Below are positions 37,580 to 54,602 of a stretch of 64,000 bases of DNA, one piece after another (the first letter of the stretch is position 1; each line of letters opens with the position of its first letter). The DNA lies in the NCBI GenBank assembly GCA_963791045.1, contig CAWBQK010000009.1, positions 1-64,000 of the forward strand. Reading direction: 5' to 3'. The DNA is from Candidatus Latescibacterota bacterium. GTDB lineage: Bacteria > Krumholzibacteriota > Krumholzibacteriia > WVZY01. Under the pieces are notes generated by a model that did no database searches, had not been told where the DNA came from, and saw nothing but the letters and a program-made list of their open reading frames with translations. Position numbers and translations under genes: made by a program.

Positions 37580-38998
37580 TTACCACTCGGGGTTTTCCGC
37601 GGTAAGATATTCGTGGATCGATCGTGCCGCTTTGCGTCCGGCGCCCATCGCCATAATAACGGTTGCGGCTCCTGTCATCACGTCGCCACCCGTCCACACA
37701 CGCGGTTTCGAGGTCTTGCCCGTCTCGTCGTCGGCGGCGATATTGCCTTTTCTTCCGATGTCGAGTCCCGGGGTCGTCTGGGCGATCAAGGGGTTCGGGC
37801 TGTTTCCGATCGCGCACACAATCGCGTCGACGGGGACCAGCGTCTCCGAGCCTTCGACGGGCACGGGCCGGCGGCGCCCCGACTCGTCGGGTTCTCCCAG
37901 CTCCATCCTTTTGCACTCCATCTCCTTGACCCAACCGTTTTCGTCACCGATATAACGAAGCGGCAGTGTCAGAAGATCGAATATGACGCCTTCTTCCTCC
38001 GCATTTTCGACTTCTTCGAGTCGCGCGGGAAGTTCGTCCCTCGACCGCCGGTACACTATGTGGGTTTCGGCGCCCAGTCGCAGCGCGGTCCTGGCGCAGT
38101 CCATGGCCACGTTGCCCCCACCGACGACGAACACTTTCTTGTGGTTCTTGATCGGTGTACCGCTACCCGGGAGATAACCCTTCATCAGGTTCATTCGCGT
38201 CAGGTATTCGTTGGCCGAGTACACGCCGTTGAGGTTTTCTCCGGGGATATCCATAAACCACGGAAGCCCGGCGCCCGAACCGACAAAACAGGCGTCGTAT
38301 TCTTCGAGCAGGCTGTCAATCGTTCTCGTCCTGCCGATGATATAGTCCGTCACCATCTCCACGCCGAGTTTCTCGAGATAGTCCACTTCGCGTTTGACGA
38401 TCTTCTTGGGCAATCTGAATTCCGGAATTCCGTAGATCAATACGCCGCCCATTTCGTGGAGCGCTTCAAAAATCGTGACACCGTGACCCTGTTTGATGAG
38501 ATCGCCCGCAACGGTCAACCCCGCGGGGCCTCCACCGATTACCGCAATCTTCTTGCCCGTCGCCGGCGGAATCTCCGGCAGCTTGAGATTTTCCTGTTCG
38601 GCTTCCCAGTCGGCGAGGAACCGTTCGACACGGCCGATGGCAAGCTCGCCGCCCTTTTTTTGCAGTGCGCACACGCCCTCGCACTGGTCTTCCTGTGGGC
38701 ACACCCTTCCACACACGGCTGGAAGCAGGTTTTTGTCTTTGAGTATGCGGACACCTTCGGCGAAATCCCCTTCGGCCACCGCGGCCATCATCCCCGCGAT
38801 ATCGATCTCCACCGGACAGCTGCTAACACACCTCGGCTTCTTGCATACGAGACACCGGGCGGCTTCTTCCATCGCCAATTCCGCTGTGTATCCAAGCGCG
38901 ACTTCATCGAAATTGTGCGCGCGCACATCTTCGGCCTGTTTGGGCATCTCTCTTCTATTGAGATCGATCTTCTTTTTTTCTTTCTTGGGTTCGGCCAC
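37580..38998 (-). CDS. nfnB: NfnB/SudA (GltD-like) FAD/FeS NADPH oxidoreductase
   Basis: EAARCLVC...CP, CGRVCPQEDQC, GGGPAG, GGGNVAMD, YRRS; directly after nfnA; no gltB nearby. Confidence 0.88.
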   Translation of the reverse strand: MAEPKKEKKKIDLNRREMPKQAEDVRAHNFDEVALGYTAELAMEEAARCLVCKKPRCVSSCPVEIDIAGMMAAVAEGDFAEGVRILKDKNLLPAVCGRVCPQEDQCEGVCALQKKGGELAIGRVERFLADWEAEQENLKLPEIPPATGKKIAVIGGGPAGLTVAGDLIKQGHGVTIFEALHEMGGVLIYGIPEFRLPKKIVKREVDYLEKLGVEMVTDYIIGRTRTIDSLLEEYDACFVGSGAGLPWFMDIPGENLNGVYSANEYLTRMNLMKGYLPGSGTPIKNHKKVFVVGGGNVAMDCARTALRLGAETHIVYRRSRDELPARLEEVENAEEEGVIFDLLTLPLRYIGDENGWVKEMECKRMELGEPDESGRRRPVPVEGSETLVPVDAIVCAIGNSPNPLIAQTTPGLDIGRKGNIAADDETGKTSKPRVWTGGDVMTGAATVIMAMGAGRKAARSIHEYLTAENPEW

Positions 38999-39061
38999 TG
39001 TATTAATCCTCTTGCTTGACGAATTGCCTATTACAAAATCTTGATATTTGATTTCCGCCTG

Positions 39062-39907
39062 CTATTGCGACAGGCAGGTCCGCTTCTTACACCCGCTCGT
39101 CTTGATGGATTTGGTTTCTTCGGCGACGTATGACTTCCGCCTCTGAAACAGCTCATCCCAATCCACCTCGTGTCCGTCAAAATCGGGACCATCCACGCAG
39201 GCAAACTTGGTTTCCGATCCAACCGTCACGCGGCAAACGCCGCACATTCCCGTGCCGTCGATCATGATTGGGTTCAAGGCGACAATCGTCTTGATCCCCA
39301 GGGGACGGCTCGCGTCGCAGCCTTTTTTAAGGAGGAGCGTACAGCCGTTTATAATGATCCGGTTGACGGGCACACCAAGCGACTCAATGATTTCGGGAAG
39401 CTGGTCAACGTGCCCCTTGATTCCTTTTGTGCCGTCGCGAGTGATGTAAATAATCTCGTCGGCCACGTCGCGCAGTTTCTCTTCCCAATACATGAGATAG
39501 GAGCTTCTGCTCTCCATCACCACGACGACCTTGTTGTTTTTCTCTTTCAACCCGCGGGCAATCGGATACACACTCCCGATTCCGTAACACCCACACAAAA
39601 GGAGAACCGTCCCAAACTCCTCAATCTCTGACGGCGTCCCCAACGGCCCCGCAAGAGTCGGAATACTATCGCCCTCTCTTAGCTCCGAGAGCTTTCCGGT
39701 TGTGTGTCCCACGTTCTGAACGACGGTGGTTACCGTTCCTTTTTCCGCATCCCAGTCGGAAAGCGACAACGGTATCCTTTCACCCTCCTCGTCCGCACGG
39801 ACAATAATGAACTGTCCGGGCTGAGCGGACTTTGCGACCGCGGGCGCTTCAAATGTCATGCGAAAAGCATTCGGGATGATCATCTCGGACTTGACCAGCT
39901 TAAACAT
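39062..39907 (-). CDS. nfnA: NfnA/SudB-like FAD, 2Fe-2S subunit (divergent)
   Basis: PGQF, GERIPL, GPLG, MIDGTGMCGVCRV, FACVDGPDFD. Confidence 0.85.
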   Translation of the reverse strand: MFKLVKSEMIIPNAFRMTFEAPAVAKSAQPGQFIIVRADEEGERIPLSLSDWDAEKGTVTTVVQNVGHTTGKLSELREGDSIPTLAGPLGTPSEIEEFGTVLLLCGCYGIGSVYPIARGLKEKNNKVVVVMESRSSYLMYWEEKLRDVADEIIYITRDGTKGIKGHVDQLPEIIESLGVPVNRIIINGCTLLLKKGCDASRPLGIKTIVALNPIMIDGTGMCGVCRVTVGSETKFACVDGPDFDGHEVDWDELFQRRKSYVAEETKSIKTSGCKKRTCLSQ

Positions 39908-42428
39908 CTTTTTTCCTTAAGTTTACACGCAGCGTACGCAACCCATCGGTGTCGGGTCCATCCAGTATAGTGCTCAACAAACCCGGCGGCTGTTCATCGA
40001 TCAGGCGAGCGCGCCATATTTTTTCAAAACCGTCCGAATTGACGATAACTTCGTCGCCCTCGGAAACCCCCGCGTTCAATGCGTCGTCGCGGTTCATCTC
40101 GACCACGCCTTCAATAAACAACTCCCCTGTTCCCGGTACGAATTCCCGCAGGGAAAGTCCCCTGTAGGTATGCTCGGAGACTGCGACACGAAGAACAAAC
40201 GGACAGTCGCCGGCATTCTCTTCCGGCTGAGATCCGGCGTCCGCCGCATCGTCCGATCCGGAACGATCCCCCTCCGGCAACGCGGCAAGTTCCATTCGCG
40301 CGGCATCAATATCTTTGTAACCGGCGACGATCTCTGACATTTCTTTTTGAATCTCGCCGACATTCTTGAAATCAAAACCGCTCTTCCCCATTTTTCTCGC
40401 GATCCGGCACAGGACATCCCAATCGGGCAGCGCATCCCCGGGAGGATCGACGATCTTACGCACCCTCTGTATCCGTCCCTCACCGTTGACAAAGGTGCCG
40501 TCCGCTTCGGAGAACGCCGCCGAAGGCAGTGAAAGGTCCGGATTGACGTCCGGCAGGGCCGGATAAATATTTTGATAGATCAAGAAATCGGTTTGAGGCC
40601 GCTCCGCGGGAGAACCATCGCCCACAAGAAAAGTCACCTTCGTTTTTTGCTTGATCGAGAATACGTAAGGCTCCGGCGACGATCCCGATCCGGCAAGATC
40701 GACACCCCACAATTTCGAGAGCTTTTTTATCTGGGCCGCATCGGATGAGGAATACCCACCGGGGAGAATTCCGGAACTGGCACCCATAAGGAGCGAGCCG
40801 AAAAGATTGTTGTGCGGAGGAAGAACGACGACCTTCGCGCCTATCGCCTCGCCGAGCAGTTTTATCGACCGGAGAATGTCCCGGGTCGACTCGCGCTGCA
40901 GAACTTCGGTTCCAACAAGAATGACGGGGTTATCCGCACCCCGCAGCATCGTCGCCGCGTTGAGAACGACTTCATCGACAGCGTCGCCCTCCCGATCAGC
41001 CGGGGGCTTCTCGCCGTTGCCATTGACCGAACCAAGAAGTTTTTCGAAGAACTTTCTCTCGGTGCCGGGTTGCGGCTTGATCCAAAGATCGCTCGATATC
41101 GCCAGTTCATTCGCGCGGGGATTGAGCGTAATAACTCTCGCTCCCCTGGCAACGGCTTTTCGAAGTTCGACGTTTACGACCGACTGAGCGAACTGGACGT
41201 CCAGACCAGCGCAGAATGCTACCTGCGCGTTCTTGATATCGGCGAGAGTTCCCGGCATTCTCAAAAGATCGACATAAGCGTCGAGGTCCGGCCCAAAGAA
41301 ACGCCTCGCATCGGTATCGATGTTGCCGGAACCCATCACGACACGCGTGAATTTTTGAGCGACATATAGATCTTCGCTCGAACAGTTCGCTGACACTACC
41401 ATCCCGAATTCTTCTGGACCACATTCGACAAGTCTCTCGGTCGCCAACGCTACCGCGTCATCCCACGAGCACTCCAACGACACACCATTTTCAAACGCGT
41501 ACGGCTTGGTCACGCGCGTTTCGTCGTTCACCAGCTCCGGAAGACAAAACCGGCCTTTCACGCAAAGTTGAGCATCGCTTACGACCGGGTCTTCGACCGG
41601 CAGACTACCGATGAGTTCATCCCCTTTGGCCAGCAGCTTGACCTGGCAGCCTATACCGCACAGAGGACAAGTCGAAACTTCTTCTTTGTCCGCGACGCCA
41701 TCCCATTTCTTGACTCTTTCCGACAGCGCGCCGGTCGGGCAAACGGCGATACACTCTCCGCAGAACTCGCAGCCCGCGTCGATCTGATCGCAGTCGTATG
41801 CCGTCCCCACCATCGTGTCCGAACCGCGTCTAAGAAACGCCAGAGCGGCCGAACCACGGAGCTCCCCACACACGCGCACGCAGCGCCCACAAAGAATACA
41901 AAGATTGTAGTCGCGGTCGATAAACGGGTCGCCTTTGGTCACTGGAATACCGCGGTATTTGATCGGATACACAAGCTCCTTCACACCGAGATATTCGGCC
42001 ACGTCCTGCAGTTCGCACTGGCCATCCGTGGGGCAGTAACGGCAACCCGTGGTAACACCCGCCTTGCGAACAGTTGTTTGCTTCGCCCGGCAATCATCCT
42101 TCTCGCCGCAAATCAAGCAACTCGACGGATGTTCGCTCAATATTAACTGGAGAATATCGACGCGCGCAGATTGAACGGCTTTCGAATTGGTTTTTACTTC
42201 CATTCCCTCTGTGACCGGCGTCGTACACGCCGCGGGGTATCCGCGCATCCCATCGACCTCGACGACACACATCCTGCATGCGCCAAACGGCGTCAGCTCC
42301 TTGTGGGTGCACAGCGTCGGTATGTATATGCCGTTTTGCTCGGCGGCTTGCAGAATGGTCGATCCCTTCTCGGCCTCGACCAGCTTGCCGTCCATTTTGA
42401 TTTTCATCTTCTGTGCTGTTTTACTCAT
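39900..42428 (-). CDS. NuoG/FdhA-like multi-FeS protein lacking the Mo/W-ligating Cys/Sec
   Basis: IPTLC..GACRMC..AC, HxxxCxxC, two 4Fe-4S motifs, CPLCGIGC..LCVKG; Fdh active-site region reads NIDTDARRFF. Confidence 0.8.
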   Translation of the reverse strand: MSKTAQKMKIKMDGKLVEAEKGSTILQAAEQNGIYIPTLCTHKELTPFGACRMCVVEVDGMRGYPAACTTPVTEGMEVKTNSKAVQSARVDILQLILSEHPSSCLICGEKDDCRAKQTTVRKAGVTTGCRYCPTDGQCELQDVAEYLGVKELVYPIKYRGIPVTKGDPFIDRDYNLCILCGRCVRVCGELRGSAALAFLRRGSDTMVGTAYDCDQIDAGCEFCGECIAVCPTGALSERVKKWDGVADKEEVSTCPLCGIGCQVKLLAKGDELIGSLPVEDPVVSDAQLCVKGRFCLPELVNDETRVTKPYAFENGVSLECSWDDAVALATERLVECGPEEFGMVVSANCSSEDLYVAQKFTRVVMGSGNIDTDARRFFGPDLDAYVDLLRMPGTLADIKNAQVAFCAGLDVQFAQSVVNVELRKAVARGARVITLNPRANELAISSDLWIKPQPGTERKFFEKLLGSVNGNGEKPPADREGDAVDEVVLNAATMLRGADNPVILVGTEVLQRESTRDILRSIKLLGEAIGAKVVVLPPHNNLFGSLLMGASSGILPGGYSSSDAAQIKKLSKLWGVDLAGSGSSPEPYVFSIKQKTKVTFLVGDGSPAERPQTDFLIYQNIYPALPDVNPDLSLPSAAFSEADGTFVNGEGRIQRVRKIVDPPGDALPDWDVLCRIARKMGKSGFDFKNVGEIQKEMSEIVAGYKDIDAARMELAALPEGDRSGSDDAADAGSQPEENAGDCPFVLRVAVSEHTYRGLSLREFVPGTGELFIEGVVEMNRDDALNAGVSEGDEVIVNSDGFEKIWRARLIDEQPPGLLSTILDGPDTDGLRTLRVNLRKKDV

Positions 42429-44316
42429 TGGTTCCACCTGCTTCGTTCCCTACAAGAAGTCCGTCGCCGGCGACGGCTCCGAATTCACATATCTCATAAC
42501 ACGCCCGGCATTTCACACACTTGGTCGGATCCAGGACATGCGGCACCCTCTTTTCGCCGGTAATCGCCCCGGTCGGGCACGCCCTCATGCAGCGAAGACA
42601 ACCCGTACACAATTCCGGGATAATCCGGAACTCGACGAGATCACTGCAAATCACCGCGTCACATCTCTTGTCGTTTATGTGAGCAAGGTATTCCGAACGG
42701 AAATAGCGAATCGTGGTCAGCGCCGGATTCGGCGCCGTTTGCCCGAGACCGCACAACGATGTGTTGCGGATAGTCTCCCCGAGGGATTCGAGCGTGTCGA
42801 GATCCTCTTCAACGCCTTCCCCTCGTGTGATCCTCTCGAGAATATCGACCATGTGTCGCGTGCCGATTCGGCACGGGTTGCACTTGCCGCACGACTCGGC
42901 CTGGGTAAAATTCAAAAAGTACTTGGCCACATCCACGACGCAGGTATCCTCATCCATTACGATCAGACCACCCGAACCCATTATCGATCCTGCTTGCGCC
43001 AGTGATTCATATTCCACCGGCGTGTCGAGAAACTCCTTGGGAAGACAACCGCCCGAAGGACCGCCCGTCTGAACCGCTTTGAATTCCTTGATCGAACCGC
43101 CGCCGATGTCGAAAATGATTTCCCTGAGCGTGGTCCCCATCGGCACCTCGATGAGACCCGTGCGGGCAACCTTGCCGACAAGTGAAAACGTCTTTGTGCC
43201 GCAGCTCTTTTTGGTTCCGTACTGGCTGTACCAATCGGCCCCGTTTCTCAGAATGCTCGGCAGCGAAGCGAGAGTTTCGACGTTGTTGATAACTGTCGGC
43301 TTTTTCCAGAGACCGGAAACCGCGGGGTAAGGCGGCCGCGATCTGGGCATTCCGCGCTCGCCTTCGATCGACGCGATGAGCGCCGTTTCCTCTCCGCAAA
43401 CAAACGCGCCAGCGCCTTCTTTGATAGAAATATCAAAATCAAACCCGGAGCCGAGGATGTTCTTTCCGAGAAGCCCGAACTTTCGAATCTGCCCCACCGC
43501 TTTTTTCAAACGGGCCACGGCGAGCGGGTACTCCGCCCTTATATAGATGTAACCATGCGCCGCTCCAATTGCGTACGCGGCAATCAACAAACCCTCTAGA
43601 AGCGCGTGCGGGTCCCCCTCAATGAGAGAACGGTTCATGAACGCGCCCGGATCGCCTTCATCGGCATTGCATATCATGTATTTGGTATCGCCCGGAGCAT
43701 TCCGGCAAAACTCCCATTTCTTTGCCGTCGTAAACCCGGCGCCGCCGCGGCCCCGGAGCCCCGCCGCCGACACCTCGGCGATCACCTGCTCCGGCCCATC
43801 CGCGAGCGCAGCCTTCAATCCAAGGTATCCGTCATTCGCAAGATAGTGGCCTACATTTTCCGGATCGATGATACCGCAGTTTTTGAGGACTATTCTCACC
43901 TGGGGTTTAAGCATCGGCAGGTCGAAAAACCGCGGCAAATCCCCGACGGATTCTTCGCCCTCTTTGCCGAAGTGGCCAACGGCAAAGCGCTGGAGCGGAG
44001 CGCCGTCCATGACATGCGATTTGATAATCCGCCGCGCATTCTTTGCGGTCACGTTCGAATAGCTGACCCGAGGCTCTCCGGGCATCGCGATGTCCATTAG
44101 CGGTTCGAGATAGCACGGTCCAATGCAGCCGACTTCCACGATTTTCGCTTCGAGCTTGAACTCCTCGAGCGACTCCTTGATCGTCTCCATCACCTGGAGC
44201 GCACCGGCGGCGCGTCCGCACGATGCCATCCCCAGATAGATGACGGGCACCTCGCTGGTCATCAGCGTCGCCCAATCTTCGTCTGCCTTTCTAATCGTGT
44301 TCAGAAAATCATTCAT
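42421..44316 (-). CDS. NuoF/HydB-like NAD(H)-FMN subunit with N-terminal 2Fe-2S and C-terminal 2x4Fe-4S
   Basis: LRGRGGAGF, NADEGDPGAFM, GAFVCGEETAL, NNVET, ESCGKCNPC, CTGCLRCMRACP, CVKCRACYEIC. Confidence 0.92.
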   Translation of the reverse strand: MNDFLNTIRKADEDWATLMTSEVPVIYLGMASCGRAAGALQVMETIKESLEEFKLEAKIVEVGCIGPCYLEPLMDIAMPGEPRVSYSNVTAKNARRIIKSHVMDGAPLQRFAVGHFGKEGEESVGDLPRFFDLPMLKPQVRIVLKNCGIIDPENVGHYLANDGYLGLKAALADGPEQVIAEVSAAGLRGRGGAGFTTAKKWEFCRNAPGDTKYMICNADEGDPGAFMNRSLIEGDPHALLEGLLIAAYAIGAAHGYIYIRAEYPLAVARLKKAVGQIRKFGLLGKNILGSGFDFDISIKEGAGAFVCGEETALIASIEGERGMPRSRPPYPAVSGLWKKPTVINNVETLASLPSILRNGADWYSQYGTKKSCGTKTFSLVGKVARTGLIEVPMGTTLREIIFDIGGGSIKEFKAVQTGGPSGGCLPKEFLDTPVEYESLAQAGSIMGSGGLIVMDEDTCVVDVAKYFLNFTQAESCGKCNPCRIGTRHMVDILERITRGEGVEEDLDTLESLGETIRNTSLCGLGQTAPNPALTTIRYFRSEYLAHINDKRCDAVICSDLVEFRIIPELCTGCLRCMRACPTGAITGEKRVPHVLDPTKCVKCRACYEICEFGAVAGDGLLVGNEAGGTNE

Positions 44317-44761
44317 ATTTTTCCAAAATTTCGTTGAGGTCGTTGACAGTGACACGGCTGTGAATCTCGTCCCCTATTTTTACAACGGGCGCGAGCGCGC
44401 AGCACCCAAGACATGCGGCGCGTTCGAAATCATAACGTCCGTCTTCCGTGGTTTGGCCCGGCGATACTCCAAGCTCTCGTTGGATACCTTCACTGAGAAC
44501 ATGCCCCCCGGCAACATGGCAGGCAGTGCCCAGGCAAACCTTAACCGAGTGCCTCCCTGGCTCTGTGAATCGGAACTGGGAGTAAAACGACGCGACGCCA
44601 AAAATCTTGCTTTCGGAAATCTTCAAAAAACGCGAAATACGTTTGACGGTCTCTTTCGAGATAAAACCGTCTTTCTCTTGAAAGTCCTGAAGGATCGCAA
44701 TCAGTTCACCCTGCTTTCCTTCAAATTCGGAAAATGTGCTCGTCGAATCTTTATCAATCAT
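44309..44761 (-). CDS. NuoE/HydC-like 2Fe-2S subunit
   Basis: VCLGTACH, CLGCCALAP. Confidence 0.92.
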   Translation of the reverse strand: MIDKDSTSTFSEFEGKQGELIAILQDFQEKDGFISKETVKRISRFLKISESKIFGVASFYSQFRFTEPGRHSVKVCLGTACHVAGGHVLSEGIQRELGVSPGQTTEDGRYDFERAACLGCCALAPVVKIGDEIHSRVTVNDLNEILEKYE

Positions 44762-44822: not shown

Positions 44823-45416
44823 TCAGCTCGAGGCGGTGTTGTCCTTGTCTCTGGGTTTTCTTTTGTGCAGATGATAATAACAAGTCCGCTTTACGACATC
44901 TCGCAGCAGACATTTCTCGCGGAAGTAAATCCCGCACCGGAAACACAGCTCCGGCGGCGCGGTTTCCAACTCGACGATATCGGCGGACAACCGATCGAGA
45001 AGATCCGCGGTCTGGATGAAATCCTCCGGCATAAACTGTCGAAACAGGCCGTCGAGTACCTTGTCCTGGACCTTTTCGTATCTTTCGAGCAATGAATGTG
45101 CTTCCGGCGTAAGAGACAACTCGTTCACGCGGCGGTCGGTCTTCGATTCCACGCGCAGGAGATATCCACGGCGAACGAGTCTGTCGACCGCCTTGCTCGC
45201 GGCGGCGTTGGTCACCCGGCAAAAAGCAGCCACTTCGGTTATGCTTTCAACATTGGTCGAAGCCACAAGCTTGAGAAGCCTGAGCTGGGAGATGGTGACC
45301 TCCCCACCAAGTTCCTCTCGAAGATGCTCCATCATCAACTCGTCCACCGCGGAACTGAAGATATGCATGCTCGCGAGGAAGTCGTTGATAATCCTGGTTC
45401 GCTCTTTCACAGCCAC
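44823..45416 (-). CDS. MarR-family regulator with C-terminal Cx2Cx7Cx9C motif (paralog 1)
   Basis: TISQLRLL, AASKAVDRLVRRG, DRR; CFRCGIYFREKCLLRDVVKRTC; GTG start after AAGGAG. Confidence 0.85.
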   Translation of the reverse strand: MAVKERTRIINDFLASMHIFSSAVDELMMEHLREELGGEVTISQLRLLKLVASTNVESITEVAAFCRVTNAAASKAVDRLVRRGYLLRVESKTDRRVNELSLTPEAHSLLERYEKVQDKVLDGLFRQFMPEDFIQTADLLDRLSADIVELETAPPELCFRCGIYFREKCLLRDVVKRTCYYHLHKRKPRDKDNTASS

Positions 45417-45481
45417 GTTTTGAGCTCCTTGGTTTGGAATCGCGGGCACGGACTTTCGAGGCCTGCCGCCCTCGAATTCAA

Positions 45482-45522
45482 TATATGGTGTTAATATTAT
45501 ATGGTGTTAATTTGTTTGGCAA
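45482..45522 (-). promoter_or_regulatory. Promoter of marR1-nuoEFG-nfnAB with tandem 14-bp direct repeat (candidate operator)
   Basis: Minus strand TTGCCA-17-TAATAT; TATATGGTGTTAAT at 45482-45495 and 45498-45511. Confidence 0.55.
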
Positions 45523-45770
45523 GTTTTTTTTTGCGGTGGACGGGATCAGTATTTCGAACACCCATAAAGTGTGGGGTGATTCCGTCCTGGATCCCAAGTA
45601 TTCATATATAAAATATTGTATGACAGCAATGTACGTCAATGTCCAAGCATAATCAGGGTGGGCGGCACGTCAGCAAACACCCAGACCGTCACGGACACAA
45701 CGCCACAACCTAGCCTAATCTATTCGAAACAGTTGAAGTCCCCATTACGCCTGATAAAAACCCCAGGACT

Positions 45771-45815
45771 TTGTGAATTTTTTCCCTTGACCCTACGATT
45801 AACCAGGTTTACTGT
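45771..45815 (+). promoter_or_regulatory. Promoter of marR2-hdr-mvh operon with partial Rex-like site
   Basis: TTGTGAATTTTTTCCCTT (10/14) overlapping TTGACC-17-TACTGT; ATTAAC in spacer. Confidence 0.45.
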
Positions 45816-45935
45816 TTAGTGGAGAGTTTGGCGAGGCTTACAATCTTAGCGCCTTTGAGCATCACACAACTGGGTCACCTCTCGGATGAAAGTGGAAGCA
45901 ACTTCCAACCATCGCGGCTGAAGAGGGGCAAAATT

Positions 45936-46538
45936 GTGGAATCAGTTCAAAGAACGGCTATCATAAACAACTTCCTCGCCAGCATGAGCATCTTCTCGTC
46001 GGCGACCAATGAACTCATGGCCGAGCAGCTTAAAAGCAAGCTCGGTGGCGAGTTGACCATCTCCCAGTTGAGACTCCTCAAGTTAATCGCAAAAACTGAC
46101 ATTCGAAGCATCAGCGACGTTGCCACATTCCTCGGCGTAAGCAACGCCGCGGCAAGCAAAGCGGTGGACCGCCTGGCCCGGCGCAAACTGGTTTCGAGAA
46201 TCGAATCTCCGGACGACAGACGCGCGACCCGTTTAAAACTCACTCGAAATGGCTCCCAGCTACTCGAACAATACGAGACGGCTCAGAATCATATCCTCGA
46301 AGGACTCTTCCGGCAGTTTATGCCGGAGGACTTTATTCAGTTGGCGGAACTGCTCGATCAGCTTTCCTGCGACATTGTCGAGCACGATTCCGGCCCGCGC
46401 GACGTTTGCTTTCGCTGCGGCATCTATTTCCGTGACAGATGCTCTCTCCGAAGCATTGTCGGCAACGGCTGCGGCTGCGTAAAAATCCGCGATGGGAAAA
46501 ACGTCGACGGCGCCGACACACCCAAACACAATCTGTAG
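45936..46538 (+). CDS. MarR-family regulator with C-terminal Cx2Cx7Cx9C motif (paralog 2)
   Basis: TISQLRLL, AASKAVDRLARR, DRR; CFRCGIYFRDRCSLRSIVGNGCGC. Confidence 0.85.
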   Translation: MESVQRTAIINNFLASMSIFSSATNELMAEQLKSKLGGELTISQLRLLKLIAKTDIRSISDVATFLGVSNAAASKAVDRLARRKLVSRIESPDDRRATRLKLTRNGSQLLEQYETAQNHILEGLFRQFMPEDFIQLAELLDQLSCDIVEHDSGPRDVCFRCGIYFRDRCSLRSIVGNGCGCVKIRDGKNVDGADTPKHNL

Positions 46539-46553
46539 GAGGGATGTAACAAA

Positions 46554-47135
46554 ATGAGGCCGGTGATAAAAAGTGAAACCCACCGTGACCTGGATTTCGC
46601 GCAGTGGGTCAAAGACCTTCACGGCGCTGAGCACCTCAAAGAGTGTATCCAGTGCGGTGTATGCAGCGGCAACTGTCCCCTCGGCAAATACATGGATTAT
46701 AGTCCCCGGCGGTTGATTCACATCGCGAAGGAAGGCTTCAAAGAGGAAGTCCTCGGCAGTTTCACCATCTGGCTCTGCACTAGCTGCTATGCCTGCGCGG
46801 CAGATTGCCCCAGGGAGATCAAAGTCACCGACATCATATACGCGCTAAAACGGCGCGCGATCGAAGAAAATTACTATCCCCGGAAATTTCCGATCCCGAC
46901 TCTCGCTCGTGAATTCGGCAAAATGGTTCGGAAAAACGGGCGCATCACCGAAGCCAAGCTTGTCATCAATGTATTCATGCGGACGAACGTACGACGGGCA
47001 CTCAGTATGGCGCCGCTGGGAAAGGATCTGATGCGTACCGGCCGATTCTCTCTCAAAACGGAATCAGTCAAAAACAAATCTCAGATCGAGACATTGTTGA
47101 AAGCTCTCGAAAACGATAAGGAGGGCTCGGTATGA
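46554..47135 (+). CDS. hdrC: Heterodisulfide reductase subunit C
   Basis: CIQCGVCSGNCP, IWLCTSCYACAADCPR. Confidence 0.9.
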   Translation: MRPVIKSETHRDLDFAQWVKDLHGAEHLKECIQCGVCSGNCPLGKYMDYSPRRLIHIAKEGFKEEVLGSFTIWLCTSCYACAADCPREIKVTDIIYALKRRAIEENYYPRKFPIPTLAREFGKMVRKNGRITEAKLVINVFMRTNVRRALSMAPLGKDLMRTGRFSLKTESVKNKSQIETLLKALENDKEGSV

Positions 47136-48016
47136 AAAAATATCCGTACTATCCGGGCTGCTCGGCCAAGGGCACCGGCAAAGCCTACGAAGAATCTCTC
47201 CTCGGAGTTTTCGAGGCCCTCGACATTCAACTCGACGAATTGGACGACTGGAACTGTTGCGGGGCGACCGCCTATATGTCAATCGATCAGACCCAGGCAT
47301 GTGCGCTCGCGGGGCGCAACCTCGCGCTCGCCGAGGCGCTGGGCAACGGCCAGGATCTCGTGACTCCCTGCAATGCGTGCTACCTTGTCCTGCACAAAAC
47401 CCAAACCTATCTCAACGAGCATCCGGAAATCCGCGACAAAGTTAAGAAAGCCCTCAACGCGGCGGGACTCAGTTACAAAGGAACGTCGCGAGTTCGCCAT
47501 CCGCTGGATATCCTCGTCAACGACATCGGGATCAAGGCCGTTGGGGAAAGGGTCACGCAGTCGCTGAAAGGGTTGAAAGTCGCCCCGTACTACGGGTGTC
47601 AGATTGTCAGACCCTATGCGCTCTTCGACGACCAGCACGACCCGCAAACGATGGACAAACTCATCAAGGCCACGGGCGCGGAAGTCGTTGACTATCCGTT
47701 CAAGACACGTTGTTGCGGGGCCAGTCAGACGGGGACTCTTCCGGAAACGGGATCTCATCTCGTGTACCAGATTCTCCAGGAGGCCCACTACAGGGGAGCC
47801 GATGTCGTGGCCACAATATGTCCCCTGTGCCAGTTCAACCTCGACGCCTATCAAAAAAAGGTTCGGGGCAAACATGATCTCGAACCGATGCCCGTGGTCT
47901 ACTTCACGCAGTTGCTGGGGATGGCTTTCGGACTGCCGGAAGAAAAAATCGGTTTCAGAAGAAACATCGTGCCGGCCGAGCCGGTCTTGAGAAGGAGAGT
48001 AGCTCATGGCGCCTAA
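47132..48016 (+). CDS. hdrB: Heterodisulfide reductase subunit B (two CCG domains)
   Basis: YYPGC, WNCCGA, CNAC, YYGC, CCGA, CPLCQFNLD. Confidence 0.92.
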   Translation: MKKYPYYPGCSAKGTGKAYEESLLGVFEALDIQLDELDDWNCCGATAYMSIDQTQACALAGRNLALAEALGNGQDLVTPCNACYLVLHKTQTYLNEHPEIRDKVKKALNAAGLSYKGTSRVRHPLDILVNDIGIKAVGERVTQSLKGLKVAPYYGCQIVRPYALFDDQHDPQTMDKLIKATGAEVVDYPFKTRCCGASQTGTLPETGSHLVYQILQEAHYRGADVVATICPLCQFNLDAYQKKVRGKHDLEPMPVVYFTQLLGMAFGLPEEKIGFRRNIVPAEPVLRRRVAHGA

Positions 48017-49998
48017 AACCAACGATGGCAGCAACGGGACACCCCGCATAGGGGTCTACGTCTGCCACTGCGGGACCAACATCTCCGGCCCCGTGGATGT
48101 CGAGGAAGTGGCGGAGTACGTCGCGACGTGCCCGGTGTCAAGCTGGCGAAGGATTACAAGTACATGTGTCCGGCCCCGGGCAGGAGATCATCAAACAGGA
48201 CATCAAGGAATTCGGTCTCGACCGGCTTGTCGTCGCCGCGTGCTCCCCGTCGCTGCACGAGAAGACATTCCGCAACGCGGCCGCCGAGGCGGGACTGAAC
48301 CAGTTCTTTTTCCAGATGGTTAATATCCGCGAACACGACTCATGGGTCCACGAGGACAAGGGCAAGGCGACGGCCAAGGCAAAGGACCTGATCCGTGCCG
48401 CCGTCCGCCGCGTCGCAATGGCACAAACCTCTCGAAAGCAAGACGTGTCGGAATCCACCCGGACGCGCTGATCGTGGGCGGCGGGATCGCGGGCATCCAC
48501 GCGGCGCTGACGATGGCCAACGCCGGGAAGAAGGTGTACCTGGTGGAGAGGGAGCCGACGATCGGCGGCCACATGGCCCAGTTCGACAAGACGTTCCCGA
48601 CCCTCGACTGCGCCGCCTGCATCCTCACGCCGAAGATGACCCATGTGAACCCACCCCAACATCACTCTGTGGACGATGCCGAGGTGGCGAAAGTCGACGG
48701 CTTCGTCGGCGAACTACAAGGTGCGGGTGCGAACGAAGCCCCGTTACATCATCGAGGACCTGTGCGTCGGCTGCCTCGAGTGCATCGAGGCCTGCGTGTT
48801 CAAGAACGGGGAAGATTCCCGACGAGTTCAACCTGGGGCTGAGCAAGCGCAAGCCGATCTACATCCCGTTCCCCCAGGCGGTGCCGCAGGTGGTCGGTCA
48901 TCGACCCCGAAGCCTGCATCGAGTTCAGAGCGGAAAGTGCAAGAAGACCTGCGTCGAGGCGTGCGCCGACCGCGACGCGATCGACTTCCAGCAGGAAACG
49001 AGACACGAGACGATCAAGGTCGGCACGATCATGCTCGCCACCGGGTTCAAGACCTTCGATGCCAACGGGTGCCCTACTACGGCTACGGCACGTACCCCAA
49101 CGTCTACACCGCCCTGGAGGTGGAGCGACTCGTCAACGCTGCCGGCCCCACCGGCGGCGAAATCGTGCTGCGGGACGGCCGGAACCGAAGACGCGTCGGG
49201 ATCATCCACTGCGTCGGCAGCCGCGACGAGAACACCAACCGCATTGCTCGCGGGTCTGCTGCATGTATTCGTTGAAGCTCGCCCACCTGGTCAAGGAGAA
49301 AACCGGCGCGGAGGTCTACAACTTCTACATCGACATGCGGACCCCGGGCAAGGGATTGGAGGAGTTCTACAATCGGGTCGCGGATGAAGGAGCCCATTTC
49401 ATCCGCGGCAAGGTGGCGAACGTGTACCAGGAGCCGGAAAGCGATGGGGATATGGTCCTGCAGGTAGAGGACACGCTGGCCGGAATGTATCGCAAGATTC
49501 CGGTGGACATGGTGGTCCTCGCAACCGGAATCGAGCCGCAGGAGGACGCCGAGGACGTGCGCAGGATGTTCAACATCGCCTGCTCAAACGGGGGCTTCTT
49601 CATGGAGCGCCATCCCAAACTGGCGCCGGTGAGCACGCTTCACCGACGGGATCTTCCTCGCCGGGTGCTGCCAGGGACCGAGGGACATCCCCGACACCGT
49701 GGCCCAGGCCGGCGCGGCGGCGGCGGAGGCGCTGGCGCTCATCGACCGAAGGACATCGAGCTCGAGCCCAACACGGCGCGCGTCCACGAAGACGAATGCT
49801 CGGGGTGCAAGAACTGTATCGGGGTTTGCCCGTACCAGGCGATCTCATTCGAGGATGAGAGCAAGGCCGTCATCAACGAGGTGCTCTGCAAGGGATGCGG
49901 CACCTGCGTGGCAGCGTGCCCATCCGGTTCCATCCAACAGAATCTGTTCGAAGACGACGAGATCTTCGAGGAGATCTGGGGGTGTTATTGAACTATGA
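48006..49998 (+). CDS. hdrA: Heterodisulfide reductase subunit A (about 15 frame changes; sequencing artefact or pseudogene)
   Basis: RIGVYVCHCGTNI, ACSP, NIREH, GGGIAG, DKTFPTLDCAACIL, HCVGSRD, CSRVCCMYS, CKGCGTCVAACP recovered across frames. Confidence 0.88.
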
Positions 49999-50464
49999 GT
50001 GATGCCAAGAAAACCAGACCAGGACCGTTTGAGCCAAGGATAGTCGCGTTCTTCTGTAACTGGTGTACTTACCTCGCCGCCGACCTGGCCGGCACCTCGC
50101 GGATGAAGTACGCCCCAAACGCGAGCGTGATCCGGGTGATGTGTTCGGGGCGGGTGGATCCCCAGTTCGTGCTGGATGCGTTCGCCAAGGGAGCCGACGG
50201 CGTTCTGATCGGCGGATGCCATCCGGGCGACTGCCACTACCAGGAGGGAAACTACAAGACACTGCGGCGCATGCAGTTCTTGAAGCGCATGCTCGTCGAT
50301 ATGGGGATTGAAGAGGAGCGGTTCCGGCTCGAATGGATTTCGGCAGCGGAGGCCGAACGATTGAAAAGCGTAGTTAACGAGATGGTCGCGAACGTCAAGA
50401 AACTCGGACCGCTCGAAGTCGAGGTCCCGGACGAAGACTTGTTCCAAGGAGGTGAACGCGATAA
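49995..50464 (+). CDS. mvhD: Methyl-viologen-reducing hydrogenase delta subunit (likely indel near 3' end; end approximate)
   Basis: FFCNWCTY, VMCSGRVD, GCHPGDCHY, WISAAE. Confidence 0.92.
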
Positions 50465-51469
50465 TGGAAAGCTCGAATACGGCCAAACCCAAAGTCGCGT
50501 TCTACTGGTGTGCATCTTGCGGCGGGTGCGAGGAGGCCGTCGTGGACCTTGCCGAGAAGATACTCGATGTCGTCGCGGCGGTGGACATCGTTTTCTGGCC
50601 CGTGGCAATGGATTTCAAGAACAAGATGTACGAGGCGATGGAGGACGACTCGATTCTCGCTTCGTTCATAAACGGAGCAATCCGGACCACCGAGCAGGAG
50701 GAAATGGCGGAATTGCTGCGGGAAAAGTCAAAGGTCGTCGTGGCGTTCGGCTCGTGCTCACATCTCGGTGGAATCCCCGGCCTGGCCAACCTCTGGAGCC
50801 GTGAAACCATCTTTGAGCACGTTTACGCAGAGGCCCCCGGACACCATAACCCCGATAACATTCGCCCCCAAATGAACTATGACGACAACGGACGCAACGT
50901 CACGCTCCCCGGGTTTTTCGACACGGTAAGGGCGCTCGATCAGGCAATCGAGGTAGACTACTACCTGCCCGGCTGCGCGCCGACACCCGGCATTATCGCC
51001 GGCGCGGTCGAGACGTTGTTGAGCGGCAACCTGCCGCCAAAAGGCACCGTGCTCACGCCGGATGTCGCTCTGTGCGATCAATGCTCGCGCAAGGATTCGA
51101 AACCGGAAGACCATGACCATCACCGAGTTCAAACGCCCGCACGAGATCATCATCGACCCGGACAAGTGCATTCTCGCGCAAGGAGTAATCTGTATGGGAC
51201 CGGCGACGCGGGCGGGTTGCGAAGCCCTCTGCGTCGAAGGCAACATGCCCTGCACGGGCTGTTTTGGACCAACGAGCCGGGTCAGGGATCAGGGCGCCAA
51301 GATTCTTTCCGCCATTTGTTCCAATATCGACAGCAAGGACGAGGCGGAGATCAACAGGATTCTCGACAAAATCCCCGATCCGATCGGCACGTTCTACCGG
51401 TACGGCCTTCCGCACTCGCTGTTAAAACGAAAAAGAATCGGTTCATTGGAGAAAAAGGTTGAAGTCTAA
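50464..51469 (+). CDS. mvhG: Group 3c [NiFe]-hydrogenase small subunit (frameshift ~51112)
   Basis: WCASCGGC, FGSC, PGCAP, CMGPATRAGC..C...PCTGCFG. Confidence 0.9.
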
Positions 51470-51487
51470 ACGGCAAGGTGGTTTTCC

Positions 51488-53053
51488 ATGTCCGACGAAA
51501 GAAATGACGCGCTTAAAGAAACAATAAAAGAGGGCTCCGGCAGAGCCAATGCATCCTACATGAACGCGCGGCGCCGGATCACGATCGATCCAATCACACG
51601 GCTCGAAGGTCACGGCAAGATCGATATCTTTCTCAACGATGAGGGGAATGTCGACCGCGCGTATTTTCAGATCCCCGAACTCAGAGGTTTTGAGAAATTC
51701 GCTGAAGGGCGTCTGTCCGAGGACATGCCCCAAATCACGTCGCGAATTTGCGGTGTATGTCCAACCGCCCATCACATGGCGGGCACCAAGGCCCTTGACG
51801 ATCTCTACAACGTAGAGCCGACGGATACGGCCAAGAAAATCCGCGAGATGATCTACAACATCTTTATGGTGGAGGATCACGCGCTTCACTTCTACTTTCT
51901 CGGCGGACCCGACTTTGTCGTTGGTCCCGGAGCCCCGGCAGCCGAGAGAAACGTCCTGGGTGTCATCGGCAAGGTCGGTATCGACACCGGCAAAAAGGTG
52001 ATCTCGATGCGACGGCGGCTTCGTGAAATCATCACGATGGTCGGCGGCAAGATCATTCATCCGGTATTCGGTCTTCCCGGCGGTGTGGCGCGCGGGATCA
52101 AAAAAGAAGAGATAAAACAGATCCAGGAGATCGCGGCCGAGGCCGTTGAGTTCGGCAAGTTCACGCTGGATATTCTCAAAAAAGTCGTCCTCGAGAACAA
52201 CGACTACGTCAACCTGATCGTGTCCGACGCGTTCACACACAACACCTATTACATGGGTCTCGTGGATGAAAACAATAAAGTCAACTTCTACGATGGAAAG
52301 ATCCGCGTCGTCGACCCCGAGGGCAAGGAATATGCGAAATTCAACACCCAGGATTATCTCGATCACATAAACGAGCATGTCGAGCCCTGGAGCTATGTCA
52401 AATTCAGCTTCCTGAAGAACGTCGGATGGAACGGTTTCAACGATGGCGTAGATAGCGGCATCTATTGTGTGGCCCCGCTCGCCCGCCTGAACGTGGCGGA
52501 TGGAATGGCCACACCGGTTGCCCAGGAAGCCTACGAGAAGTATTTCGAGGTCCTCGGCGGCAAGCCGGTACACCACACACTGGCCAACCACTGGGCCCGC
52601 GTCGTCGAATTGATCTACGCTGCTGAACGTTTCCAGGAGCTTGCCAACGATCCACAGATCACCGAACCCAATATTCGCAATCTGCCCACGGAGAAACCAA
52701 CCAGGGGCATCGGCGTCGTCGAAGCGCCGCGCGGGACGCTTTTCCACGATTACCAGACGGACGAACGCGGAGTGATCACAAAAGCCAACCTGATCGTGGC
52801 GACTCAGAACAACTCGGCACGCACCGCGATGAGCGTGGAAAAAGCGGCCAAGGGCTTGATCTCCAACAACAATGTAACTGATGAAATCTTGAACGAGGTC
52901 GAGATGGCTTTCCGCGCGTACGATCCGTGCCACGCGTGCGCGACGCATTCGTTGCCCGGAAGCATGCCGCTGGTTCTTCGGATCCGCGACCTCAAGGGCG
53001 AGACAAACATGATGATTCGGCGGGATACGAATGGCAGCATCCACAAAGAATAA
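51488..53053 (+). CDS. mvhA: Group 3c [NiFe]-hydrogenase large subunit
   Basis: TRLEGHG, L1 RICGVCP, EAPRG, L2 DPCHACATH; downstream of hdrABC-mvhDG. Confidence 0.93.
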   Translation: MSDERNDALKETIKEGSGRANASYMNARRRITIDPITRLEGHGKIDIFLNDEGNVDRAYFQIPELRGFEKFAEGRLSEDMPQITSRICGVCPTAHHMAGTKALDDLYNVEPTDTAKKIREMIYNIFMVEDHALHFYFLGGPDFVVGPGAPAAERNVLGVIGKVGIDTGKKVISMRRRLREIITMVGGKIIHPVFGLPGGVARGIKKEEIKQIQEIAAEAVEFGKFTLDILKKVVLENNDYVNLIVSDAFTHNTYYMGLVDENNKVNFYDGKIRVVDPEGKEYAKFNTQDYLDHINEHVEPWSYVKFSFLKNVGWNGFNDGVDSGIYCVAPLARLNVADGMATPVAQEAYEKYFEVLGGKPVHHTLANHWARVVELIYAAERFQELANDPQITEPNIRNLPTEKPTRGIGVVEAPRGTLFHDYQTDERGVITKANLIVATQNNSARTAMSVEKAAKGLISNNNVTDEILNEVEMAFRAYDPCHACATHSLPGSMPLVLRIRDLKGETNMMIRRDTNGSIHKE

Positions 53054-53504
53054 CCCGAAAACCCGTCTCCTTTGCCTCGGGAACGACATTCTCTCCGATG
53101 ACGCGATCGGAATTCGCGTGGCCAACGAGCTACGCGGACGGCTGCCGGAAGCGGTGGATGTCGTCGACAGCATGGAATCGGGTTTTCATCTTCTCGACTA
53201 TCTTCTCGGTGTCGACCGGGTCATCGTTGTCGACTCGGTCAAGACCGGCGGCGAGCCCCCCGGTTTTGTGTACGAGCTCGCCGAAGGCGATATTGATACG
53301 ATTCCAGGCACTTCTCCCCACTATATCGGACTTTTCGAAACGCTCGCCCTGGGCAGAGAACTCGGTCTGGACGTCGCCACCGAGCTTGTCATTGTCGCCA
53401 TCGAAGTGGTAGACTGTATGACCGTCGGCGGGGATATGAACCCTGTTGTTGAACAGGCGATTCCCGGCGTAATCAAGAGGGTGGAGGCTTTGGTGGGTCA
53501 ATAA
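53031..53504 (+). CDS. Hydrogenase maturation protease
   Basis: LGNDILSDDAIG, VDS, SPH. Confidence 0.88.
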   Translation: MAASTKNNPKTRLLCLGNDILSDDAIGIRVANELRGRLPEAVDVVDSMESGFHLLDYLLGVDRVIVVDSVKTGGEPPGFVYELAEGDIDTIPGTSPHYIGLFETLALGRELGLDVATELVIVAIEVVDCMTVGGDMNPVVEQAIPGVIKRVEALVGQ

Positions 53505-53851
53505 TGCACGAGTTTGGAATCGCTAGTTCTATTTTCGAGACAATAAAGTCTGAAGCCGAAAAACAACCGGGAACCCGGATTGTCGCTTTGGGGCTCAAAA
53601 TCGGCGAAGTCTCCGGTGTTGAGCCTGATTCCCTTGAATTCTGCCTGCACGCCCTCGTCAAGGATACCGAGTTCGACCCACTTGCCATAGAATTCGAGGC
53701 CTCCCCACGGCGCCAACGATGTCCCGAGTGCAATAACGAGTTCGATGTAGTAGACTATGAGGTGGCCTGCCCGGAATGTGGTGAGCTACGCACACAGCTC
53801 GTATCCGGGGATGAATTGGAGATTCTTTATTTAGAGGTGGAAGATACATGA
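53504..53851 (+). CDS. hypA: Nickel metallochaperone HypA
   Basis: MHE, CPEC x2, SGDEL. Confidence 0.95.
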   Translation: MHEFGIASSIFETIKSEAEKQPGTRIVALGLKIGEVSGVEPDSLEFCLHALVKDTEFDPLAIEFEASPRRQRCPECNNEFDVVDYEVACPECGELRTQLVSGDELEILYLEVEDT

Positions 53852-54510
53852 GCCGTGTGCAGGTTAAACGCAAAGTCCTCAAGGAAAACGACCGCATCGC
53901 CGAGGAGCTCAGAAACCAGTTCAGTTCGCAGCGCGTGCTGACGCTCAACCTGATCAGCTCTCCCGGCGCGGGCAAGACTTCCCTTCTCGAACAATCGCTC
54001 CAGCATTTCAGCGAAGACGTCCGGACCGCCGTCTTGACGGGCGACATCGAAACCGAAAACGACGCTGAGAGACTGGCCAGCTACGGGTATCCGGTGCGGC
54101 AGATCACGACGGGCGGATCGTGCCACCTTGATGCCCGCATGATAGAGAAGGGGCTCGCCGATCTCGGCGAAGACGGGCTCGATGTTCTCTTTATTGAAAA
54201 CGTCGGTAATCTCGTGTGCCCGGCGAGCTTCGATCTTGGAGAAGCGTCCAAGATCGTGGTGCTGAGCGTCACCGAAGGTGATGACAAACCGCTCAAATAC
54301 CCGTCAACGTTCCTAAAATCAGATTTGCTCGTTTTGAACAAAATAGATCTTTTGCCCCACGTGCCCTTCGATATTTCGAAAGCAAGGGAGAACGCGAAAC
54401 GCGTCCACCCGGATATCGAAATTCTCGAAGTGTCGTGCACGACTGGGGAAGGTGTAGACGCGTGGGTTCGATGGGTGGAGAACCGGCTAGATTCGCTTCG
54501 CTCGGCGTAA
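53848..54510 (+). CDS. hypB: Nickel GTPase HypB
   Basis: SSPGAGKT, CHLDA, ENVGNLVCP, EGDDKPLKYP, NKIDL. Confidence 0.96.
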   Translation: MSRVQVKRKVLKENDRIAEELRNQFSSQRVLTLNLISSPGAGKTSLLEQSLQHFSEDVRTAVLTGDIETENDAERLASYGYPVRQITTGGSCHLDARMIEKGLADLGEDGLDVLFIENVGNLVCPASFDLGEASKIVVLSVTEGDDKPLKYPSTFLKSDLLVLNKIDLLPHVPFDISKARENAKRVHPDIEILEVSCTTGEGVDAWVRWVENRLDSLRSA

Positions 54511-54602
54511 TGCCGGAAGGATAAAATGGACGGCCACCGGAAATGGCGGCGCTTTTCAGCCTCTCCGCGCGATTTGGAACAACTATCTTGGGAGACAGAG
54601 GT

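Follow-up and report, generated by a model that had tools for sequence, protein, structure and literature searches.

We analysed a stretch of 64,000 nucleotides (the window) from a Candidatus Latescibacterota bacterium (GenBank assembly GCA_963791045.1, contig CAWBQK010000009.1, positions 1 to 64,000), in which a divergent pair of open reading frames (ORFs; 44823-45449 on the minus strand and 45819-46538 on the plus strand) encodes two regulators of the MarR family, here called A and B. Each is the first gene of its own operon, and each protein ends in a C-terminal extension of about 45 residues that carries four cysteines in the arrangement Cx2Cx7Cx9C. The two genes and their motifs are as follows.

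44823..45416, minus strand: marR-A, 197 amino acids (aa), A-type Cys-tailed MarR with the tail ...CYYHLHKRK, leading into a nuoE-like gene (translation, Pfam MarR, start inferred from alignment)
44880..44945, minus strand: Cx2Cx7Cx9C of A, formed by Cys158, 161, 169 and 179 (translation, alignments)
45936..46538, plus strand: marR-B, 200 aa, B-type Cys-tailed MarR with the tail ...CGCV, leading into hdrC (translation, Pfam MarR)
46407..46472, plus strand: Cx2Cx7Cx9C of B, formed by Cys158, 161, 169 and 179 (translation, alignments)

Both proteins are recognised by the Pfam MarR model PF01047, with 33.2 bits for A and 42.5 bits for B against a cut-off of 24.6, and they are 62% identical to one another over 175 residues without a gap (E 1e-80). 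The likely start codons are a GTG at 45416 for A and a GTG at 45936 for B, since these choices match the N-termini and lengths of homologues and lie downstream of the Shine-Dalgarno-like sequences AAGGAG and GAGGGG, respectively. The strings IINDFLASMHIFSSA / IINNFLASMSIFSSA, GLFRQFMPEDFIQ and CFRCGIYFR(E/D)(K/R)C-x9-C are common to the pair, and these two are the only copies at E<=1e-3 in the organism's own genome (3.66 Mb, 21 contigs, 81% complete). Contigs from the sequencing runs of three studies contain short exact pieces that cover parts of both marR genes. The MarR core, residues ~7-150, can be aligned with solved MarR structures (PDB 4xrf, 2nyx, 5yhz and others); a family profile matched 98 distinct PDB sequences, the best at E 9.8e-13 over positions 26-147, so that the full core is represented. 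In line with this, AlphaFold2 models the core with a predicted local distance difference test score (pLDDT) of 78-95 and with the helices and two-strand wing expected of the fold, and the recognition-helix stretch AAASKAVD is nearly invariant across the family in an alignment of 38 sequences. An earlier note on this DNA had described back-to-back MarR paralogues that share these strings together with a C-terminal CFRCGIYFRxxC-x9-C of identical spacing, one heading a nuoEFG-like/nfnAB operon and the other an hdrCBA-mvhDGA operon; this description is borne out in each respect, for the operons by the Pfam and NCBIfam assignments given below.

The four-cysteine tail as a family trait

By their sequences, A and B belong to a large, unnamed subfamily of MarR-type winged-helix proteins that is defined by the four-Cys C-terminal extension. 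In a word-seeded search, 549 of the 885 candidate proteins matched at E<=1e-3. The 122 proteins examined comprised 120 listed matches, one of them the window's own protein, and two long ORF translations; all except one have the exact Cx2Cx7Cx9C (121/122), the remaining one having x8, and a spacing as constant as this is, across the sequences compared, far beyond chance. The invariant positions of the 38-sequence alignment include C158, C161, G162, R166, C169 and C179, and the invariant columns of 81 aligned tails are the four cysteines and one arginine.

An exhaustive profile search over 1.84 billion representatives, clustered at 50% identity, gave 47,592 matches at E<=1e-3, a level at which MarR proteins of all kinds are included; the number falls to 3,690 at E<=1e-10 and to 158 clusters at E<=1e-30. 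A four-Cys tail in the wider form Cx2Cx6-8Cx7-11C is present in 116 of the best 150 representatives, with spacings of x7/x9 in 81, x7/x8 in 23 and other values in 12. Among the 34 without it, 24 are shorter than 185 residues, being fragment-like or ending within the motif, and in the 10 longer ones homology mostly stops ahead of the tail, P0204 and P0250 having degenerate motifs. P0229 and P0230 (184 and 178 aa) are aligned throughout the MarR core, beyond which the proteins continue without cysteines. On these counts the four-Cys tail is near-universal in the family, but not absolute. The earlier note had let its proposal stand or fall with the conservation of the cysteines in homologues, and in both searches they are kept.

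The tail has no covering model in Pfam or NCBIfam and no matching PDB chain in library and profile searches; none of the 60 best PDB matches reaches beyond profile position 159, and a search of the ESM Atlas with residues 145-200 gave no usable match. No NCBIfam model matches A or B at its cut-off, and the names of homologues are generic, with ten clusters carrying either 'DNA-binding MarR family transcriptional regulator' or a blank in their source records.

Adjoining operons and neighbourhoods across the family

The operons that A and B lead are composed as follows; individual genes were assigned using Pfam/NCBIfam.

37580..44761, minus strand: operon behind A, encoding NuoE-, NuoF-, NuoG/Fdh-, NfnA- and NfnB/GltD-like proteins (Pfam, NCBIfam)
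44309-44761, minus strand: NuoE-like [2Fe-2S] protein
42421-44355, minus strand: NuoF-like protein, 644 aa, with extra ferredoxin domains
39900-42437, minus strand: NuoG/Fdh-like molybdopterin subunit, 845 aa
39062-39907, minus strand: NfnA-like protein (NF004862, 345.7 bits, cut-off 220)
37580-38998, minus strand: NfnB/GltD-like protein (TIGR01316, 578.6 bits, cut-off 471.75)
46554..54510, plus strand: operon behind B, HdrC-HdrB-HdrA-MvhD-MvhG-MvhA-HycI-HypA-HypB (Pfam, NCBIfam, frame analysis)
46554-47135, plus strand: HdrC
47132-48016, plus strand: HdrB
48006-49991, plus strand: HdrA, frameshifted (also frame analysis)
from 49995, plus strand: MvhD
50452-51462, plus strand: MvhG
51488-53053, plus strand: MvhA, with VhuA as best match
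53031-53504, plus strand: HycI
53504-53851, plus strand: HypA
53848-54510, plus strand: HypB
54543-56213, plus strand: indolepyruvate:ferredoxin oxidoreductase alpha-like, after hypB on the same strand

The genes behind A overlap or are separated by at most 63 nt, and hdrC begins 15 nt past the stop codon of marR-B. For the A operon (NuoEFG-like/Nfn), electron-bifurcating is a reasonable putative label by analogy, because NuoEFG-like 'Bfu' enzymes are described in the abstract of PMC12018979 as a widespread electron-bifurcating family.

We then compared these surroundings with those of related regulators. A single scan, run on the contigs of one genome per species, found 168 relatives, of which the 80 best loci were used for the comparison. 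Each of these comes from a metagenome-assembled genome, the groups represented being Latescibacterota, Krumholzibacteriia, Eisenbacteria, Gemmatimonadota and Acidobacteriota. Neighbours within 5 kb were identified by tblastn with the proteins that flank the pair in the window, and Pfam was applied to the remaining 27 loci. This revealed an hdr, mvh, hyp, nuoEF-like or nfnB-like gene within 5 kb at 53 of the 80 loci and, by Pfam, HypC-HypD at one further locus, giving 54 linked loci; by class, Hdr is found at 33 of the 80, [NiFe] hydrogenase at 30, Hyp at 14, NuoEF at 8 and NfnB at 18. The association with hdr, hydrogenase and nfn operons, the other point on which the earlier note had staked its proposal, is therefore present at these 54 loci. 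At 22 loci such a gene starts on the same strand within 400 nt downstream of the regulator (HdrC at 12, HdrA at 3, HypA at 3, NfnB at 2, NuoE at 1 and HdrB at 1). Elsewhere, a DUF362 protein with a ferredoxin-domain protein is seen at two loci and multihaem cytochromes at one; apart from these and the era, ack-pta and PQQ dehydrogenase loci described below, the unlinked loci have unrelated genes or too little flank.

Related genomes also contain more distant copies, 31-35% identical to B, which have Cx2Cx7Cx8C with Cys-Pro twice ('CP...GGCPY') and form a sister clade. In all four of its loci (L095-L098, from genomes G005, G007, G002 and G025) the regulator stands directly ahead of pyruvate/2-oxoacid:ferredoxin oxidoreductase genes, and at one of the four, L096, HdrA-, MvhD- and HdrB/C-like genes come next. 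Judged from the genes around them, the common denominator of both clades is O2-sensitive, Fe-S-rich, ferredoxin-linked redox enzymes and not hydrogenase as such. Counts by genome are in line with this: of 41 related genomes, several of them incomplete, 8 have a close MarR copy and 7 an MvhA-like gene, but only 3 have both.

In a quick maximum-likelihood tree the regulators group largely by phylum, and members linked to hdr or hydrogenase genes are scattered over several clades and phyla. B is sister to the regulator of L003, which is also ahead of hdrC (Shimodaira-Hasegawa-like approximate likelihood ratio test, SH-aLRT, 89), and A clusters with L004, ahead of nuoEFG, and with the two regulators of genome G012 (locus L094; SH-aLRT 95). 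On this tree the A/B duplication therefore predates the genus, with each type keeping its own operon.

Some features of the B operon stand apart from these comparisons. Relative to an intact HdrA (locus L021), hdrA runs through frames 3, 2, 1, 3, 2, 3 across 48024-49982, corresponding to at least four frameshifts, whereas the genes on either side are intact. Over 48.6-49.8 kb, within hdrA, the window differs by many single-base indels from a diverged contig of a sequencing run. The broken hdrA is either an assembly error or a pseudogene. The mvhD ORF (49995-50804) overlaps the mvhG ORF (50452-51462) by 353 nt, its FlpD domain ends near 50409, and in relatives MvhD stops shortly past this domain; the overrun may be another indel in the hdrA-mvhD stretch. 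In the related genome G007 (contig C64, 118905-120395) an MvhA/VhuA-like gene contains a single in-frame TGA, the pattern that a [NiFeSe] large subunit would show, unlike the window MvhA, which has none. The indolepyruvate:ferredoxin oxidoreductase alpha-like gene adds a further ferredoxin-linked enzyme to B's gene string.

The shared control region and the twin arrangement

The two regulator genes are separated by a single control region, within which the following elements were identified.

45417..45935: shared divergent control region, 519 bp (sequence, comparison with relatives)
45482..45522, minus strand: promoter-like site of A, with -35 TTGCCA at 45522-45517, a 17-nt spacer and -10 TAATAT at 45499-45494 (consensus scan)
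45482-45495 and 45498-45511: two exact 14-nt direct repeats overlapping the promoter-like site of A, with TTAAC half-sites 16 nt apart
45787..45815, plus strand: inferred promoter of B, with -35 TTGACC at 45787-45792, a 17-nt spacer and a weak -10 TACTGT at 45810-45815 (comparison with related upstream regions)
45799-45811, plus strand: palindrome-like site TTAACCAGGTTTA, inside the spacer of the B promoter

The consensus promoter scan did not call the B promoter, whose assignment is by comparison only. Related upstream regions have the same layout, namely a -35 hexamer, 6-7 nt, TTAAC, an AT-rich -10 and TYAAC, and both promoters of the window have the geometry of -35, 6 nt and TTAAC; the 14-nt repeats have no further exact copy in the window. 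TTAAC-N11-TYAAC is present in 11 of 84 upstream regions as compared with 0.15 in shuffles, 10 of the 11 in gene orientation and 82-133 nt ahead of the start codon, with the one at L021 on the opposite strand. An unbiased dyad count identified AACC-N-GGTT, likewise in 11 of the 84 regions (0.2 in shuffles) and in every case 84-135 nt before the start codon; with its flanks this dyad gives the consensus palindrome TTAACCnGGTTAA, located in the promoter spacer. Across the whole genome, four sites match the palindrome with at most one mismatch, the sole intergenic one at the B promoter and the other three within long ORFs, a distribution that favours local autoregulation over a wide regulon. These patterns suggest that the Cys-tailed MarR regulates its own gene locally at the candidate palindrome; as the candidate site lies within the promoter spacer, the form that binds DNA would probably repress.

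A perfect TGTGA-N6-TCACA was also found upstream of marR at L003, L012, L073 and L094 (five rows representing four distinct sites, as compared with 0.0 in shuffles), a hint of additional CRP/FNR-type input near some marR genes; with up to two mismatches allowed, this motif is not enriched upstream of marR (13 of 84, shuffle mean 7.2 and maximum 15). In the window, a degenerate copy lies at 45772-45787, its centre ~42 nt before the inferred transcript start of B. The middle of the intergenic region (45538-45587) contains an 11-nt inverted repeat, 91% complementary with arms 28 nt apart, and an inner hairpin; Rfam gave 0 matches on the whole window, so that the long intergenic region contains no RNA element of a known family.

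The earlier note had considered A and B possibly heterodimeric. If they acted as a heterodimer coupling both operons, one might expect the single control region with its matching promoter geometry, and the N-terminal helix and FRQF region that are kept in both proteins. These same segments are, however, kept throughout the family, which leaves nothing specific to the A-B pair, and most genomes and loci have a single copy. A second copy within the flanks occurs at one of the 80 loci, in tandem; this is L045 (9339-9854 and 10001-10516), where the copies have equal identity to the query and could stem from a recent duplication or from a repeat in the assembly. Among the 41 relatives, one other genome has a divergent pair, G012, which belongs to the same family and a different genus (L094, 9106-10719). 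Both of its copies are A-type, and all that flanks them is a nuoE remnant of 60 residues together with unrelated genes, which gives the impression that the operons were lost. Since single-copy genomes are the rule, a homodimer is to be assumed by default, with a heterodimer at best an option; we regard a coupling heterodimer as improbable, and the earlier suggestion, given the rarity of twins, is without support. With their shared 519-bp control region and same promoter geometry, it is plausible that the twin MarRs coordinate the two bifurcating complexes.

A candidate metal-based switch and its relation to known regulators

The overall best explanation, to which we give an even chance, is that of a homodimeric, TTAAC-site-binding, metal-tailed local regulator of its own operon. 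It builds on the family, the motif, the synteny and the palindrome, and adds to them a predicted DNA binding, metal, signal and sign of regulation. Each Cys-tailed MarR would most likely be a homodimeric local regulator, the dimer probably binding the TTAAC-based site in the spacer of its own promoter, and such binding would control both the regulator itself and the operon behind it. The Cys module would most likely carry a metal cofactor, with an O2- or redox-labile Fe-S cluster as first choice and Zn as second, and loss or oxidation of this cofactor would change DNA binding. The Hdr-Mvh hydrogenase, the NuoEFG-like/Nfn module and hydrogenase maturation would in this way be made only under permitting conditions. 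We tentatively put an Fe-S cluster first, at somewhat less than even odds, because the four invariant cysteines are irregularly spaced, because the sister clade has Cys-Pro, because of the nature of the adjoining and presumably controlled genes, because ChlR and ArnR (see below) provide precedents and, as weak evidence, because AlphaFold2 leaves the tail unfolded without a cofactor.

A number of observations weigh against this explanation. The A promoter is without the right half of the palindrome, and in the organism's own genome the strict palindrome marks the B promoter only. The motif is present in 83 of 84 genomic copies, the lone exception being truncated by a contig end, but these loci were retrieved with two peptide patterns of which one is the tail motif itself, so that the conservation of the cysteines among them is in part by construction; the word-seeded and exhaustive profile searches are free of this bias, and the locus set is valid for synteny. 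The likeness of the tail to the second knuckle of GATA proteins points, weakly, to Zn over Fe-S. In the AlphaFold2 model of the full protein (38 sequences) the tail has a pLDDT of 31-43 and all of residues 150-200 are below 50, and a model of the tail alone (81 sequences) has a mean pLDDT of 49 and no secondary structure, so that even a defined fold of the tail is unsupported. As for the neighbourhoods, 26 of the 80 loci have other neighbours or too little flank. These include ten loci of Gemmatimonadota with the conserved order MarR-Era-PorV-like-x-GGDEF, three with a divergent ack-pta and three with a PQQ dehydrogenase and cytochrome c. The genome-level count given above belongs here as well, and four of the seven related genomes with MvhA are without a close MarR copy.

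The era-type loci (L013, L019, L020, L023, L025, L029, L030, L038, L040 and L069) form one paralogue lineage; at L019 and L023 a cNMP-binding protein is interposed in the MarR-era-PorV-like-GGDEF arrangement.

The composition of the tail bears on what it might bind. Cys4 is followed by aromatic residues (F/Y/H at +1 and +2), then often by His (at +3 in 40 of 83 and at +5 in 49 of 83) and then by basic residues, and the 12 residues after Cys4 are 23% Lys/Arg as compared with 15% in the whole proteins. CFRCG is rubredoxin/GATA-like, and the only Pfam likeness of four tails at E<=10 is a sub-threshold GATA zinc finger, with 13-15.3 bits, far below the cut-off of 26.8, and covering one knuckle. 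As four-Cys sites are commonly Zn sites, the cysteines could form a structural zinc knuckle which, together with the basic stretch, stabilises the dimer or adds DNA contacts, the signal then being a small-molecule ligand in the MarR pocket, or none. This reading is a serious rival to the Fe-S cluster, and likelier than a thiol switch or a nickel sensor, although we consider it rather unlikely. The second half of the motif is C-x9-C and not CxxC, which places the tail outside the zinc ribbon and GATA types; the Cys-Pro found twice in the sister clade is, according to passages of PMC4500134, a feature of ferredoxin-type Fe-S sites; and a purely structural site would leave the bias of the neighbours to O2-sensitive Fe-S enzymes unexplained. 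The frequent histidines, together with HypA and HypB directly after the regulator at several loci (L005, L010), would also suit a nickel sensor through which expression of [NiFe]-hydrogenase and hypAB follows the nickel supply. However, the histidines are not invariant and marR-B is without them, and nickel enzymes are missing from many of the operons, among them nuoEFG/nfn in the window, the POR operons of the sister clade and the ack-pta and era loci; we hold a nickel sensor to be very improbable.

SurR, a regulator of hydrogenase and sulfur-response genes in Thermococcales, operates through a CxxC thiol-disulfide switch. A metal-free switch of this SurR-CxxC-like or an OhrR-like kind, in which oxidation of the CxxC alters DNA binding, would be in keeping with the invariant CxxC pair and with the Cys-based oxidant-sensing MarRs OhrR and SarZ, as described in passages of PMC4500134. 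Four invariant cysteines at fixed spacing nevertheless exceed the needs of a disulfide pair. The reactive N-terminal Cys of the OhrR type is absent, and with the OhrR model, whose cut-off is 200 bits, A and B score 21.4 and 17.3. We regard a thiol switch as an improbable account of the tail.

Returning to the metal-tailed regulator, we mention one extension as a long shot: that a low-potential Fe-S cluster in the tail might equilibrate with the ferredoxin pool and with O2, so that these MarRs would stand in the same relation to reduced ferredoxin as Rex does to NADH. They would then be a dedicated switch for Hdr-Mvh, Bfu-type NuoEFG/Nfn and POR across Latescibacterota, Gemmatimonadota and Acidobacteriota, the twins described here balancing two bifurcating complexes from one control region. 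These are abundant phyla of soils and sediments, in which, to our knowledge, the regulation of group 3c-type [NiFe]-hydrogenases, Hdr-like complexes and ferredoxin-linked bifurcating enzymes is essentially unknown. The Cys-tailed MarR subfamily provides a concrete and widely distributed candidate regulator, with a sharply defined motif and a candidate operator, and we see in this branch a good candidate for a redox switch of a new, metal-based kind. If the tail does bind an Fe-S cluster, it would be a third, architecturally distinct Fe-S sensor on a winged-helix regulator, beside ChlR and ArnR, and would serve as a sequence marker that predicts anoxia-restricted operons in metagenomes.

Full-text searches of the literature turned up neither a MarR with a four-Cys tail nor one associated with hdr, mvh or nfn operons. 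According to passages of the review PMC4500134, which cites Ludwig et al. 2014 for it, ChlR (Sll1512 / Synechococcus 7002) is a cyanobacterial MarR-type activator of tetrapyrrole genes with an O2-labile [4Fe-4S] cluster; it has 135 aa, its candidate ligands lie in an N-terminal Cys-X4-6-Cys-Pro, and one cluster per dimer is proposed. ChlR thus resembles our proposal in being MarR-type, with a Cys-bound Fe-S cluster limiting genes to low oxygen, whereas it has no C-terminal extension and A and B, at 197-200 aa, have four tail cysteines per subunit. When the features of ChlR are taken from that description, A and B do not belong to its type, as no conserved Cys precedes residue 158 in the 38-sequence alignment. 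The earlier note had known of no characterised example of such a regulator. An Fe-S MarR does exist in ChlR, and to this extent the statement does not stand; in length and in its N-terminal ligands, however, ChlR is of another architecture. ArnR of Corynebacterium, as described in passages of PMC12343034, has an N-terminal MarR/ArsR-like winged helix-turn-helix (wHTH) and C-terminal cysteines with a [4Fe-4S] cluster, controls anaerobic respiration genes, responds to NO and is confined to Actinobacteria. Compared by that description, ArnR and A/B are alike in combining an N-terminal wHTH with C-terminal cysteines; they are unlike in that ArnR has three (179, 193 and 223) in a larger domain beyond the dimerisation helix, as against four in the tail.

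The canonical members MarR, SlyA, AdcR/ZitR and OhrR match A and B in the core, but the tail is without a counterpart among the 60 best PDB matches. All scores with named NCBIfam MarR equivalogs are far below their cut-offs, including that for AdcR/ZitR (NF038251; 43.2 and 33.6 bits, cut-off 175), and for the OhrR group there is, in addition to its low scores, no conserved N-terminal Cys. FNR, Rex and SurR regulate anaerobic and hydrogen metabolism and have CRP/FNR, Rex and ArsR-type folds. The role proposed here is like theirs, in that O2-sensitive redox enzymes would be switched by oxygen or redox state, whereas their folds are unrelated to MarR. Placed by sequence, A and B are members of the MarR family outside the ChlR, AdcR/ZitR and OhrR groups, and their four-Cys tail sets them apart in architecture from ChlR, the characterised Fe-S MarR.

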